NCBI RefSeq assembly: GCF_013122565.1
Contig: NZ_CP053258.1
Direction: 5' to 3' (one strand)
Origin: Escherichia coli
GTDB lineage: Bacteria > Pseudomonadota > Gammaproteobacteria > Enterobacterales > Enterobacteriaceae
DNA length: 64,000 bases
Below the pieces are notes generated by a model. The model ran no database searches, was not told where the DNA came from, and saw nothing but the letters and a program-made list of their open reading frames with translations. The stretch's first letter is position 1, and each line of letters starts with the position of its first letter. Below, one piece after another: positions 53,091 through 56,844 of this stretch. A program made the position numbers and the translations under genes.

Positions 53091-53107
53091 GCCGAGTATA
53101 GGCAAAA

Positions 53108-53470
53108 TTACTCTTCCCGGCCTTTACTCATACTTTTTTGGTCTTCATCCGGATAGTGTTTTTTTAGATATTCCAGGACGTTTTTATTGACCTTGTGTTG
53201 CGTATACACCCACCCTTTCCAGTAATCAGGCTGGTCCAGGTAAACTTCTGGCGGAATGGTGAAATCAGAAAGCGTTAACCATTCGGCTAACAGATCGGGG
53301 TTTCGTTTCTGGATCAACTGCAACAGCATAATCAGCGACATGGCAGAGGCAGGAGCCGTACTATCGCCGCTTAAATACTTCCACACTGTCGACCGGTTCG
53401 AACGAAAAAGGATCGGTAGCAATGCCCGGTCCAGATTCATTTCATTAAAAATCTTCTCAAATTCATTCAT
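53108..53470 (-). CDS. Hypothetical 120-aa protein, possible HTH DNA-binding protein (accessory)
   Basis: ORF with SD AGGA 9 nt upstream; segment RSNRSTVWKYLSG resembles an HTH recognition helix (weak, by eye); divergent from the downstream operon. Confidence 0.6.
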   Translation of the reverse strand: MNEFEKIFNEMNLDRALLPILFRSNRSTVWKYLSGDSTAPASAMSLIMLLQLIQKRNPDLLAEWLTLSDFTIPPEVYLDQPDYWKGWVYTQHKVNKNVLEYLKKHYPDEDQKSMSKGREE

Positions 53471-53836
53471 TTAAATTTTCCTGCCTGGCGTAAACCTCTT
53501 AAAAATTGAGATTTATCAAAGAAACGCATTTTAGCACACATCAGGAACCGCTTCACGTTTAGTCCAGAAACAGAATTTATTTCGCTTATCAAAACAAGTC
53601 TTTACTCTTTTTTACATTGAAAGAGCACGAAATGATTTCCTTTTTTATTTATAAAAGAAACACTTTTTGTTTCTTATTGGTGGTGTTTACGCTTACACCA
53701 AACAAAAATGCGCTTTACATCACACAAATGGCGGCGTAGATTTCGATCAAATTGCAACGTAGTTTATTTCTTAAAACAATATTATTAGTTTCTTATAGAA
53801 ACATTAATGCGACTTATTTTGATCGAGAGAAAATGA

Positions 53837-54853
53837 ATGAAAACTGTAAACGTAGCTTTACTGGCACTCATAATTTCAGCAACATCCAGCCCTGTTGTTT
53901 TAGCTGGTGATACCATTGAAGCGGCGGCAACAGAGCTTTCAGCCATTAACTCGGGCATGTCGCAATCGGAGATTGAGCAGAAGATTACCCGCTTTTTAGA
54001 ACGCACCGACAACAGCCCCGCTGCATATACCTATTTGACTGAACATCACTACATCCCTTCTGAAACACCTGATACCACTCAGACTCCCCCTGTCCAGACA
54101 GATCCTGACGCAGGACAAAAAACCGTTGCCGCTACAGGTGATGTACAGACAACCGCCCGTTATCAGAGCATGATCAACGCCCGACAGTCTGCGGTAACTG
54201 ATGCCCAGCAAACGCAAATTACAGAGCAACAGGCGCAGATCGTAGCCACACAAAAAACGCTCGCCGCGACTGGAGATACGCAAAATACTGCGCATTATCA
54301 GGAGATGATTAATGCCAGACTGGCGGCTCAAAATGAGGCTAATCAGCGCACTACCACGGAACAAGGGCAGAAAATGAATGCACTGACAACCGATGTGGCA
54401 GCACAACAGCAAAAAGAAAGGGCTCAATACGATAAACAAATGCAAAGTCTGGCGCAGAAGTCTGTCCAGGCACATGAGCAAATTGAAAGTCTGAGACAAG
54501 ATTCCGCACAAACGCAGCAACAGTTAACCAACACGCAAAAACGGGTCGCAGATAACAGCCAACAAATTAACACGCTCAATAACCATTTCGATTCTCTGAA
54601 AAACGAAGTTGAGGACAATCGTAAAGAAGCCAATGCGGGAACTGCATCTGCCATCGCTATCGCCTCACAACCACAGGTGAAAACCGGTGACTTGATGATG
54701 GTGTCAGCGGGAGCGGGAACGTTCAACGGTGAATCTGCGGTGTCTGTAGGAACATCTTTTAATGCCGGAACGCATACGGTACTTAAAGCAGGTATTTCTG
54801 CGGATACACAATCTGATTTCGGTGCGGGTGTCGGCGTGGGATATTCGTTCTAA
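53837..54853 (+). CDS. Short trimeric-autotransporter-like outer-membrane protein (338 aa)
   Basis: Signal peptide MKTVNVALLALIISATSSPVVLA; Q/T-rich coiled-coil passenger with two imperfect 45-aa tandem repeats; C-terminal ~70 aa match the YadA-type anchor (AGTASAIAIASQPQ ... GAGVGVGYSF). Confidence 0.8.
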   Translation: MKTVNVALLALIISATSSPVVLAGDTIEAAATELSAINSGMSQSEIEQKITRFLERTDNSPAAYTYLTEHHYIPSETPDTTQTPPVQTDPDAGQKTVAATGDVQTTARYQSMINARQSAVTDAQQTQITEQQAQIVATQKTLAATGDTQNTAHYQEMINARLAAQNEANQRTTTEQGQKMNALTTDVAAQQQKERAQYDKQMQSLAQKSVQAHEQIESLRQDSAQTQQQLTNTQKRVADNSQQINTLNNHFDSLKNEVEDNRKEANAGTASAIAIASQPQVKTGDLMMVSAGAGTFNGESAVSVGTSFNAGTHTVLKAGISADTQSDFGAGVGVGYSF

Positions 54854-54906
54854 TTTTAACAGCAATTTCTTATTCGCAATTTTCCGCACATTATTTAAGG
54901 TTAACA

Positions 54907-55329
54907 ATGATGAATAGCTCCATTAAATCGTTTTCCCTGCTGGCGGTTATATTACTGGCTGGCTGTAGTTCACCCACTTCCCGCATCGCAGATTGCCAGG
55001 CGCAGGGCGTCAGTCATGACACCTGTTATCTCGCAGAACAGCAGCGTCAGACGGCTATTTTAAGTGCATCCGAGGCGCAGGCATTTAAAAATGCAGAAGC
55101 CGCACAACATGCCCAGGCGGCAAAGAAAGCCATTTATAAAGGATTTGGCGTCACCTTCAGAATGAGCAGTAAGGACTTTGCTTATCTCAATGATTCATTA
55201 TGTGCCATAGATGAGGATAATGCCGATGCCACGGTTTATCAGTCGGGTCTGTATAACGTCATTGTTTATCATCACACAGGAAAAATCGCCTTAATGAAAG
55301 AAGGCCAGTTTGTGGGCTATTTAAAATGA
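54907..55329 (+). CDS. Hypothetical lipoprotein (140 aa)
   Basis: Signal peptide with lipobox LLAGC; four Cys in the mature part. Confidence 0.75.
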   Translation: MMNSSIKSFSLLAVILLAGCSSPTSRIADCQAQGVSHDTCYLAEQQRQTAILSASEAQAFKNAEAAQHAQAAKKAIYKGFGVTFRMSSKDFAYLNDSLCAIDEDNADATVYQSGLYNVIVYHHTGKIALMKEGQFVGYLK

Positions 55330-55532
55330 AGGAGCAAAGGAAAATACCCCTGACGCACATTATGATTATCGGTGCGTTTATTTTTGCCTTCTTGCAAGTG
55401 GTGTTATTAGCCTCCCTGGTTCACGCTGTGAATGTTAACAACGAAATCCAGGAAGGCTTATTTCAGTCGGGGCGCATTATGGTAGAAAGTTTGCAGCATA
55501 TTCTTTCGGTGCAAACGGGGATTAATGGGTAA
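55326..55532 (+). CDS. Hypothetical small membrane protein (68 aa)
   Basis: ATGA overlap with upstream stop; one TM helix IMIIGAFIFAFLQVVLLASLVHAV; no independent SD. Confidence 0.5.
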   Translation: MKEQRKIPLTHIMIIGAFIFAFLQVVLLASLVHAVNVNNEIQEGLFQSGRIMVESLQHILSVQTGING

Positions 55533-55620
55533 GGATACCGTTACCATTTCCAGAGCAATAGTCACCAGCGTAATTTTCTGGCACAGTTCAGGGTTCTGAA
55601 TATTCGGCTAAGGAGTGGCC

Positions 55621-56844
55621 ATGCTTTTTCCCTTTCGAAAACCTGAAGTACGTCTGCTGAAAAATACCGCTGCGGGCGTCATTTTTTCGGTGAAGTCCGG
55701 TAAAGGATTTCTGCGTCAATGTGTGCTTTACGATCCGCACCCTTATGGGCTTATCCGTTCACTCTGCTGGCAGGATGTCCCGGTAATACGTTTCTGGTCC
55801 GAGGCCGGCTGCCCCACCTGCGCGGAATTTGTCTACACCGGTTTTGCGGATGATGAACAGGGAGCCGCCCGGTTTTTGTCTGCTCTCGAAAACTGGAATC
55901 GCCCATGGTCTGGCTTTGCGGACGCTTTTGCCGCGCTTACACCGCTGTTCTCATGCCTTGCTGATGGCTATTATCTGCTGGAAGATCGTGAACTTTACCC
56001 GACGGATGGCAATGGGCATTTCTTTTGGGCGGCAACGGACCATAGCGCCAGTAATCCGGCAACCGTTGCCGCCTGGGATCCTGAATATTGCTATTTCTGT
56101 GACACCGCCCCCTGTTTTCTTCTTCCTGGACAGCCGCCATCACATTTTAATCCTGAGCGTGTGACGTTTTATCGCGATAAACCGGAAGCCCGCGCTTTGG
56201 CCTGGTATCTCCCTGATTCCTATCTCTGCGTTCTGCTCGACGGGCACCATAAGGCCACTGCTGCCGCACTGGAAGGGCGACCGCTCAAAACACTGGTACT
56301 CAGCACGGCAACCCGTTTTAATGATGAGCAACAAACCCTGGTATTTTCGGGCGGAGAATGTCTGCACAAAACAGAGCTACTGTGCCACGTTCCCAAACTC
56401 ACTGAGTGGAAAACATTACCGCCCGGCGCATGGGAGAGTTTCGGCCCTGATAAGCACATCAGCCCATCCGAAACCTGGTCAGAAGAGTTGCAGCAGAGCG
56501 TCAGTCGGTACCCTTCACTGGATCAAGCCTGGCAAATTGTTGAGGCCGGGAATTTGAGCGAAACTCGTATTAAGAGCATGATCCAACAAGGTTTGGGGGA
56601 GGATGAACAGGCTGATGTAATTTTGCAGGCGCTGTTTTTCACACACTCGCCGCTTTTTATTGACTTTGCCCGATTCGTTATCAGTCATCCGGCATACGCC
56701 AGTTATCGCCCCCTCACCTTCCGGTTGATGGCGCAAAACCGAACGCCGCAAGCAGATGCTTTTTTTCTGGATTTTGCCATCAATGATGACGGCGAACGTC
56801 CGGAGTTGACGAAAATAATGGACGACTATTTTCGCAAGCCTTAA
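55621..56844 (+). CDS. Hypothetical Cys/His/Trp-rich protein of unknown function (about 407 aa)
   Basis: SD AAGGAG 6 nt before ATG at 55621 (ORF-track GTG at 55615 abuts the SD); no recognisable motif; CPTC and CYFCDTAPC clusters. Confidence 0.7.
   Translation: MLFPFRKPEVRLLKNTAAGVIFSVKSGKGFLRQCVLYDPHPYGLIRSLCWQDVPVIRFWSEAGCPTCAEFVYTGFADDEQGAARFLSALENWNRPWSGFADAFAALTPLFSCLADGYYLLEDRELYPTDGNGHFFWAATDHSASNPATVAAWDPEYCYFCDTAPCFLLPGQPPSHFNPERVTFYRDKPEARALAWYLPDSYLCVLLDGHHKATAAALEGRPLKTLVLSTATRFNDEQQTLVFSGGECLHKTELLCHVPKLTEWKTLPPGAWESFGPDKHISPSETWSEELQQSVSRYPSLDQAWQIVEAGNLSETRIKSMIQQGLGEDEQADVILQALFFTHSPLFIDFARFVISHPAYASYRPLTFRLMAQNRTPQADAFFLDFAINDDGERPELTKIMDDYFRKP

Follow-up and report, generated by a model that had tools for sequence, protein, structure and literature searches.

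Two unrelated accessory modules, O-island 29 and a solitary gene for a ParB/sulfiredoxin-fold protein, share the ybbJ-cueR slot in Escherichia coli

Genes and features of the slot

The window analyzed here is a 64,000-nucleotide stretch of the genome of Escherichia coli strain 2020CK-00188 (contig NZ_CP053258.1, RefSeq assembly GCF_013122565.1), and the subject is the accessory segment that lies within it between ybbJ (52446-52904) and cueR (56845-57252, minus strand). In E. coli K-12 MG1655 the slot is empty and the stop codons of cueR and ybbJ abut at 514400/514401, so the extra DNA in the window extends over 52905-56844 (3940 bp). An earlier note on this DNA had correctly stated the adjacency in K-12 and had proposed an accessory insertion of ~3.7 kb; the extra DNA is real, and its measured extent is the one given here. 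The five open reading frames (ORFs) of the segment, all of which are found where the note had placed them, had been read as a single envelope gene set. We find instead that the segment consists of two unrelated accessory modules that share one variable slot and do not form one five-gene system: module A (53108-55532) has four genes, and module B (55621-56844) is a solitary gene for a protein of 407 amino acids (aa).

Between the ybbJ stop codon and module A lies a cluster of four repetitive extragenic palindromes (REPs) in two ~100-bp units arranged as direct repeats (52898-53085), as expected from the bacterial interspersed mosaic element (BIME) cluster recognized previously. Module A starts with the orthologue of z0640 (53108-53470, minus strand; 120 aa), followed by a divergent control region (53471-53836) which separates it from the autotransporter operon and which is indeed very AT-rich (31.4% GC, compared with 52.0% for the window). 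Three genes on the plus strand complete the module: the orthologue of z0639, also named gmrA (53837-54853; 338 aa), for a predicted short trimeric autotransporter, the orthologue of z0638 (54907-55329) for a 140-aa lipoprotein, and a gene for a 68-aa single-pass membrane protein (55326-55532). The module B gene (55615/55621-56844, plus strand) encodes 409 or 407 aa depending on the start codon, and the RefSeq start is the ATG at 55621, 6 nt 3' of an AAGGAG motif.

Distribution and composition of the modules

Co-occurrence was assessed by megablast against 5426 complete E. coli genomes, with the whole segment, module A (53101-55540) and module B (55600-56844) as query regions. Some part of the segment was detected in 2217 genomes, and at least 80% of it in only 133. 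Module A is present in 1416 genomes, 1370 of which have it essentially complete, while module B is present in 965 and full-length in only 270. From the union of 2217, the two modules coincide in ~164 genomes, compared with ~252 expected under independence without correction for phylogeny. Modules A and B therefore show no positive association. Module A occurs without the 407-aa gene in O157:H7 and ~1250 other genomes. The slot is empty in K-12, holds only module A in O157:H7, holds only module B in E. coli strain PBP5 as well as in E. albertii and Superficieibacter, and holds both modules in the window. When the window is compared with a slot containing only module B, homology begins ~25 nt upstream of the start codon of the 407-aa gene.

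The modules also differ in composition. The module A genes have a GC content of 43.5-48.4%, against 52.2%, similar to the host, for the 407-aa gene, and this contrast is consistent with two separate histories. In other species, a homologue of the 407-aa gene is adjacent in none of 21 cassette loci (see below). The comparison across genomes that the earlier note had suggested thus gives a divided answer, with a coherent four-gene cassette and an unassociated 407-aa gene. The defence role raised in that note found no backing in PADLOC, which returned no match for four of the five proteins and only coiled-coil noise for the autotransporter (E of at least 0.005). The 120-, 140-, 68- and 407-aa proteins gave nothing significant in NCBIfam, PADLOC, PHROGs or Pfam. 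Searches of the PDB with single sequences and family profiles likewise yielded nothing beyond noise for the families of the 407-aa protein, the lipoprotein and the 120-aa protein, save for a weak HigA-2 match of the last.

Module A is O-island 29 of EHEC O157:H7

Module A corresponds to O-island 29 (OI-29) of enterohemorrhagic E. coli (EHEC) O157:H7, and comprises z0640, z0639, z0638 and a small ORF. OI-29 was defined in O157:H7 EDL933 as a 2,643-bp island with z0638, z0639 (gmrA) and z0640, and has been the subject of a deletion and complementation study (Yang et al. 2018, PMC5826968), so this part of the segment is not the uncharacterized set it had been taken for. The window proteins are 95.6% (autotransporter), 100% (z0640 orthologue), and 96.4% and 97.1% (the other two) identical to those of O157. 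The two loci have the ybbJ-side slot, gene order and orientation in common, but O157 lacks the 407-aa gene, and 3 nt separate the end of its small ORF from the cueR stop codon. The EDL933 annotation in PMC5826968 has three genes and leaves out the 67/68-aa ORF.

The published OI-29 primers (PMC5826968, Supplementary Table S2) align to the ORFs of the window with no more than 2 mismatches. The arms used to delete gmrA fall at 53798-53836 and 54853-54891, directly flanking the 338-aa ORF; the gmrA cloning primer ATGAAAACTGTAAACGTAGCTTTA is the start of the same ORF, and the FLAG primer finishes with the C-terminal codons of that ORF (...GVGYSF) in reverse complement. These positions identify gmrA as the 338-aa ORF with the signal peptide and YadA anchor described below. 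Similarly, the z0640 deletion primer maps at 53470-53508, which identifies z0640 as the 120-aa gene, and primer mapping identifies z0638 as the lipoprotein gene.

Autotransporter features of the z0639 (GmrA) protein

Judged by its sequence, the z0639/GmrA protein is predicted to be an exported outer-membrane trimeric autotransporter. The YadA anchor reported in the earlier note is confirmed by Pfam (PF03895, E 1.6e-11, residues 279-338), and the C-terminal ~95 residues match translocator domains of known structure, those of AtaA (E 5e-7) and Hia (E 1e-5). At the N-terminus, a signal sequence, MKTVNVALLALIISATSSPVVLA↓GD, was recognized by inspection, with K2, the hydrophobic core VNVALLALIISA and then VLA↓GD. 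The signal peptide is followed by a conserved ~50-aa N-terminal domain, a Pro/Thr linker, two ~46-aa repeats and a Gln-rich, coiled-coil-type stalk that leads into the anchor. No head, neck or other passenger Pfam domain was found, and the stalk gave only coiled-coil-type background matches (SMC, ATG16, JetC). The RefSeq name of the protein is "YadA family autotransporter adhesin", and its best PHROG matches are a prophage "adhesin" family (E 5e-22) and a prophage "tail protein" family (E 8e-14). A signal peptide, a coiled-coil-type passenger and a YadA anchor are shared with the type Vc adhesins (YadA, Hia, AtaA, UpaG/EhaG, Saa, Eib), but the z0639 protein is very short, has no recognized head, and is encoded at a locus that differs from that of UpaG/EhaG. 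Its role as an adhesin is only predicted.

No DNA-binding family matched the 338-aa protein significantly in Pfam, NCBIfam or the PDB. The sole match named for DNA binding is the coiled-coil family TMF_DNA_bd (E 0.079); at a guess, this may be what CDD returned to the authors of PMC5826968.

The z0638 lipoprotein and the 68-aa protein

The lipoprotein gene follows the autotransporter gene after a gap of 53 nt. The protein was rightly called a lipoprotein, as it has a lipobox (LLAG↓C) that is invariant in the family, with Ser at +2. By the +2 rule of E. coli, Ser at this position predicts sorting to the outer membrane, the predicted location of the z0638 lipoprotein. The protein begins with a Cys-containing module, continues through a long helix and ends in an 8-stranded beta-barrel; in the AlphaFold2 model, residues 75-140 have a predicted local distance difference test score of at least 89, and the preceding long helix is less confident. 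The ~45 N-terminal residues of the lipoprotein (lipobox plus CxAQG(V/I)SxDTCYLAEQNRQ) were also seen as stand-alone lipoproteins of 65-68 aa and fused to different C-terminal domains of ~150-170 aa, in Buttiauxella, Atlantibacter, Kluyvera, Aeromonas and others (loci L030-L052, positions ~4500-4700). In three loci (L038, L053, L054), variants of this kind again sit behind a YadA-anchor gene.

Two helpers of trimeric autotransporters offer a comparison. SadB is a trimeric inner-membrane lipoprotein that aids the display of SadA (Grin et al., PMC3953254). Like SadB, z0638 is a small lipoprotein co-operonic with an enterobacterial trimeric autotransporter and has an N-terminal long helix and a C-terminal beta domain, but SadB resides in the inner membrane whereas Ser at +2 predicts the outer membrane for z0638. 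Kinship with SadB/YajI (coiled coil plus Ig/MATH-like sandwich) was rejected by fold; neither protein is among the 60 matches listed, and neither was found when the z0638 family profile was searched against the PDB. TpgA is a BamE/OmpA-like periplasmic partner of Acinetobacter AtaA (PMC12523085), and both TpgA and z0638 are encoded next to a trimeric autotransporter gene, but family searches found no BamE or OmpA domain in z0638. Two further candidates were rejected: TraV, proposed by one Joint Genome Institute name and an NCBIfam match of E 0.0012 that covers only the signal peptide and N-terminus (19.5 bits, cut-off 44.75), and phage T5 Llp, whose match (E 0.41) is restricted to the signal peptide and lipobox. 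According to a 2026 preprint, no trimeric-autotransporter helpers other than SadB and TpgA have been described, and its own survey, which required a YadA head domain, found none (bioRxiv 10.64898/2026.01.22.700529). As z0639 has no YadA head, its short-autotransporter subfamily lies outside the sampling of that survey. We tentatively raise the possibility that z0638, perhaps together with the 68-aa protein, represents a third class of partner, unrelated to SadB and TpgA, which serves short autotransporters with no recognized head; as a corollary, GmrA would be an autotransporter and its effect on flagella indirect.

The 68-aa gene overlaps the lipoprotein gene by ATGA, in agreement with the translational coupling noted earlier, and its product has the single hydrophobic segment expected of it (19-residue Kyte-Doolittle maximum of 2.7-2.95 in close homologues). 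K/R residues at the N-terminus point to an N-in topology. In Pseudocitrobacter and E. whittamii, homologues of 64-68 aa are encoded at the equivalent place, likewise coupled to the lipoprotein gene.

The z0640 protein and the divergent control region

The description of the 120-aa protein as a possible helix-turn-helix (HTH) protein holds for the ORF itself, and the HTH is plausible. Residues 6-63 match Pfam MqsA_antitoxin (E 0.12) and, in the family profile, residues 3-51 match HigA-2 (E 0.66); both matches are sub-threshold, and both place an XRE-type antitoxin HTH on the same N-terminal region. A promoter scan found 3 sites, compared with 5.9 expected from shuffled sequences, and the one sigma-70-like site in the control region (53714-53742, plus strand) is not above chance.

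Conservation of the cassette in other species

Homologues of the lipoprotein are confined to Enterobacterales and a few others. A Pseudocitrobacter-like contig carries the full arrangement, with a 111-aa gene on the minus strand, a 363-aa YadA-anchor protein, a 156-aa lipoprotein and a 67-aa protein, and here the cassette is located between fetA and qmcA, close to the ybbJ-cueR slot in the same neighbourhood but distinct from it (locus L009; positions 3138-5671 in L009/L013). In Pseudocitrobacter faecalis, the order is a 121-aa gene on the minus strand, a 633-aa YadA protein, a second surface-type protein of 588 aa, a 171-aa lipoprotein and a 64-aa protein, beside a large serine recombinase. 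In Enterobacter asburiae, a 293-aa YadA protein is followed by a 156-aa lipoprotein.

A scan of one genome per species gave 47 loci, 18 of them with a full-length lipoprotein homologue. By phmmer, a YadA-type gene lies upstream of the lipoprotein gene in 13 of the 18, directly adjacent in 12. Two more (Phytobacter and a metagenome-assembled genome, MAG) have an upstream signal-peptide protein of 620 or 517 aa that ends ...GVGLSGDF or ...SVGFSGDF and is anchor-like by eye. In total, 15 of 18 species loci pair the lipoprotein with an upstream YadA-type gene, at several unrelated chromosomal sites, and the core of the cassette is found in Rahnella, Yersinia, Enterobacter, Phytobacter and Pseudocitrobacter, among others. 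Nine of the 18 loci have a divergent z0640-like gene upstream, and the divergent gene of the recurring cassettes encodes 108-125 aa. The autotransporter passenger ranges from 284 to 728 aa, whereas the partner genes are conserved. The third gene always begins at or near the lipoprotein stop codon but differs in kind: 64-68 aa with a single transmembrane segment in Escherichia and Pseudocitrobacter, 71-80 aa and soluble in Rahnella and Serratia, and 69 aa with a C-terminal transmembrane segment in Pantoea. Because the third gene is variable, the conserved core is taken to be the regulator-like gene, the autotransporter and the lipoprotein.

Several individual loci show variations. In Rahnella woolbedingensis, one z0640-like gene precedes two autotransporter-lipoprotein pairs in tandem, of 582 aa + 138 aa and then 574 aa + 138 aa (L018, 2706-7248). 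Serratia silvae has lost the autotransporter gene and kept the z0640-like gene, the lipoprotein and the small ORF (L025, 3797-5207). In the Pseudocitrobacter-like contig and in Serratia silvae, the cassette sits just upstream of qmcA. An Erwinia lipoprotein gene adjoins an ORF that is integrase-like by eye.

Module B encodes a ParB/sulfiredoxin-fold protein

The middle domain of the 407-aa protein has a ParB/sulfiredoxin (Srx) fold. It carries the motif LDGHH and is flanked by a beta domain with CPTC on the N-terminal side and a helical-repeat domain on the C-terminal side, the C-terminal third matching VHS, ENTH or HEAT-type helical-repeat domains. In a 50-sequence alignment, L206, D207, G208, H209, H210 and A214 are invariant and A212 and A216 at least 90% conserved, and LDGHH is followed by K or R; CPTC (64-67) is nearly invariant and the block YPTDGNGHFFW (126-136) is also conserved. 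The protein had been described as rich in Cys, His and Trp and as having no recognizable motif. The enrichment is only mild (11 of each, 2.7% each), and the invariant LDGHH followed by K/R is a recognizable motif of ParB/Srx type. Nor does the gene belong in an envelope set, as the protein is a cytoplasmic one of ParB/Srx type. UniProt names of relatives in AFDB include "ParB-like nuclease" and "ParB/Sulfiredoxin domain-containing protein", while Pfam ParBc (PF02195) matches 0 of 50 family members and no Pfam domain was found in the relatives. The superfamily includes, for comparison, ParB, KorB, PadC, sulfiredoxin and the serine kinases SerK and SbnI. The GHH(K/R)xxAA of the 407-aa family is presumably the counterpart of the phosphate-binding GCHRxxAA of sulfiredoxin and GERRxRAA of ParB, and from this equivalence we propose a cytoplasmic nucleotide-binding or -hydrolysing protein. 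The 407-aa protein probably binds or hydrolyses a nucleotide through LDGHH(K/R)xxAA.

An exhaustive search placed 358 clusters at 50% identity in the family. Full-length relatives of ~400-460 aa occur in E. albertii, Salmonella and Superficieibacter, and others with 20-35% identity in Clostridia, Ruminococcus and Fusobacterium. One member has an N-terminal leucine-rich repeat (LRR) extension, and other extensions are unannotated. The gene stands alone in the ybbJ-cueR slot in E. albertii, Superficieibacter electus and many E. coli. The Salmonella copy lies between genes with IU_nuc_hydro and HSP70 domains, read as rihA and hscC, and the Firmicute contexts are mutually unrelated, with miscellaneous genes in Clostridium gelidum and a Clostridiales MAG. 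Across the Salmonella and Firmicute contexts examined, no conserved neighbours of the 407-aa gene were found. One Firmicute-type metagenome homologue lies within a conjugation/Tad-like block with a type IV secretion system (T4SS) coupling protein, TrbL, a prepilin peptidase, RcpC and a T2SSE ATPase, and with a SMODS-domain gene near (L060, 1274-11275). The ParB-like protein IbrB co-activates Eib autotransporter genes; a comparable role for the 407-aa protein was considered and set aside, since its gene is distributed independently of the cassette.

Among the 965 E. coli carriers, ~695 have a copy with an internal deletion of ~510 bp, which is annotated as a frameshifted pseudogene in the sole genome inspected, that of WP5-S18-ESBL-09 (L062, 1554-2232). 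ST131 strain 4433 matches the 407-aa gene partially in an identical way. The gene appears to be a pseudogene in most E. coli carriers. Module B looks like an old Escherichia-lineage resident of the slot that has been lost repeatedly, and not like part of the island. The possibility that the segment is conserved at this position, with K-12 as the deletion variant and a known function annotated, had been foreseen as a refutation of the original proposal. In part this is what we see, as K-12 looks like a loss variant for module B and one module A gene has a published, though questionable, function.

Interpretation and alternatives

We consider it probable that the segment is a composite of a horizontally acquired, adhesin-type cassette (module A) and an unrelated, decaying module B. 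For module A, the mechanism with the best support involves a short trimeric autotransporter on the cell surface, partnered by a dedicated lipoprotein and controlled by a local regulator. The z0640 protein would regulate the 31%-GC divergent control region. The z0639 protein would be exported by Sec via its signal peptide and, as expected from family membership, its YadA anchor would trimerize into a 12-stranded outer-membrane barrel through the beta-barrel assembly machinery (BAM) complex, after which the Gln-rich coiled-coil passenger of ~250 residues would be exposed at the cell surface. The z0638 lipoprotein would be sorted to the outer membrane and the 68-aa protein would reside in the inner membrane. 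Given the conserved gene pairing, the lipoprotein, and perhaps the small protein, may act as a dedicated periplasmic helper or anchor, analogous to SadB and TpgA and unrelated to both. The motility phenotype of a z0639 deletion would then arise indirectly, through the envelope or surface. Module B would be an older, vertically inherited and often decaying gene for a cytoplasmic ParB/Srx-fold protein, functionally separate from module A.

Other accounts of the segment were weighed. That all five genes form one envelope system for a surface structure, adhesion or defence, with the 407-aa protein as cytoplasmic component and the 120-aa protein as regulator, is now very improbable. The genes are contiguous, four are co-directional, no clear terminator separates the 68-aa and 407-aa genes, and the whole arrangement recurs in the 133 E. 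coli genomes mentioned above, but each module is far commoner without the other, their co-occurrence falls below chance expectation, and the 407-aa gene is found alone in the slot and in unrelated contexts elsewhere. With the absence of an adjacent 407-aa homologue from the cassettes of other species, the difference in GC content and the lack of a PADLOC match, the distribution largely refutes a single system; what stands of the original proposal is that four of the genes behave as a conserved cassette, from which the 407-aa gene is independent. It is also improbable that module A is remnant cargo of a phage or mobile element which provides superinfection exclusion, serum resistance or immunoglobulin binding (cf. 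Eib, T5 Llp) in place of adhesion. Such a role would fit the prophage families among the best PHROG matches, the recombinase beside the Pseudocitrobacter copy, the integrase-like ORF in Erwinia, the low GC content of the module A genes and the fact that no adherence phenotype is reported, but the E. coli cassette has no genes for phage structure or integration next to it, PADLOC gave nothing specific, and the resemblance to T5 Llp goes no further than the signal peptide and lipobox.

Several observations weigh against the composite reading and the roles proposed within it. The HTH matches of z0640, as an XRE/MqsA-type candidate, are below significance. No terminator is evident between the 68-aa and 407-aa genes, where a scan found only weak terminator-like sites, and modules A and B may be co-transcribed in this strain. 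The third gene is not conserved across genera, the lipoprotein occurs without an adjacent autotransporter in three species, and its helper role is drawn from gene adjacency only. Deletion of OI-29 left adherence to HeLa and Caco-2 cells and expression of the locus of enterocyte effacement (LEE) unchanged, z0639 alone restored motility, and deletion of z0638 or z0640 had no effect on motility (PMC5826968). In addition, His6-GmrA shifted a fliA promoter fragment in an electrophoretic mobility shift assay (EMSA), and GmrA-3xFLAG enriched the fliA promoter in chromatin immunoprecipitation (ChIP-qPCR) (PMC5826968). The last results underlie the published view that GmrA, the z0639 protein, acts in the cytoplasm as a transcriptional activator by binding the fliA promoter and that OI-29 is a regulatory motility island. 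In its favour, deletion of OI-29 lowered motility 1.86-fold and reduced flagellation, deletion of gmrA caused a comparable loss of motility, the phenotype was also seen in eight other strains, and a gmrA plasmid raised motility in K-12 (PMC5826968). Against it, the primers place gmrA on an ORF with a signal peptide and a YadA anchor and with no recognized DNA-binding domain, the gene is paired with a lipoprotein gene, as expected of an envelope protein, and RefSeq names the product an autotransporter adhesin. The binding assays used tagged protein expressed from plasmids (pET28a, pTRC99A); according to the primers, the N-terminal His tag precedes the signal peptide and 3xFLAG is attached where the anchor ends at the C-terminus, and both tags could disturb export or membrane insertion. 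The sequence cannot refute the published experiments. However, an indirect effect of the envelope or surface on flagella is the more economical reading and seems more likely than activation of transcription by a protein predicted to be exported to the outer membrane, and we regard the activator view as unlikely. Five later papers continue to describe GmrA as a horizontally acquired transcription factor that activates fliA, and at least two of them do not mention its autotransporter features.

OI-29 is already known as a named island in which one gene has a published function, and that function conflicts with the sequence. What is new here is the reinterpretation of GmrA, a candidate third autotransporter partner and an uncharacterized ParB/Srx-fold family, none of which is categorically new biology. 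If the reinterpretation of GmrA is true, the regulatory network of EHEC motility needs revision, and how a surface fibre is connected with flagellar expression becomes a separate question. The pairing of the lipoprotein across Escherichia, Pseudocitrobacter, Rahnella, Yersinia, Enterobacter and Phytobacter makes it a third helper candidate beside SadB and TpgA. In the 407-aa family, which extends across Enterobacteria, Firmicutes and Fusobacteria, the ParB/Srx fold is joined to novel flanking domains.

Slot boundaries and neighbouring features

The REP cluster was found in every occupancy state of the slot, with REPs also at the O157 and PBP5 junctions. The REP units (52954-53092) score 58.5 bits against Rfam naRNA4 (CssrE), for which the gathering score is 59.5; this near-match reflects the REP origin of that RNA family and does not indicate a distinct gene. 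The last ~9 codons of ybbJ (52876-52904) differ markedly between K-12 (...GITLHIRAVSS) and the window, O157 and PBP5 (...RAVIA in one form), so the slot boundary extends into the 3' end of ybbJ. The best complete E. coli genome is only 97.9% identical to the window over the whole segment (53101-56844), and the flanking fetA-ybbJ region is at most 98.8% identical, which suggests that the arrangement comes from a lineage sparsely represented among complete genomes.

Beyond cueR lies a second accessory island (57249-64000), in which an HlyD-family gene (57249-58424), which overlaps the start of cueR by 4 nt, is followed by an ABC gene (58421-60583) and then siiEA. According to their RefSeq names, these encode a type I secretion adaptor, an ABC exporter and the giant BapA-related adhesin SiiEA. 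Strains without the SiiEA island, such as PBP5, retain a 98-nt frameshifted remnant ORF beside cueR (L003, 7653-7750), which suggests that the island was deleted in these strains and was not simply absent from them.

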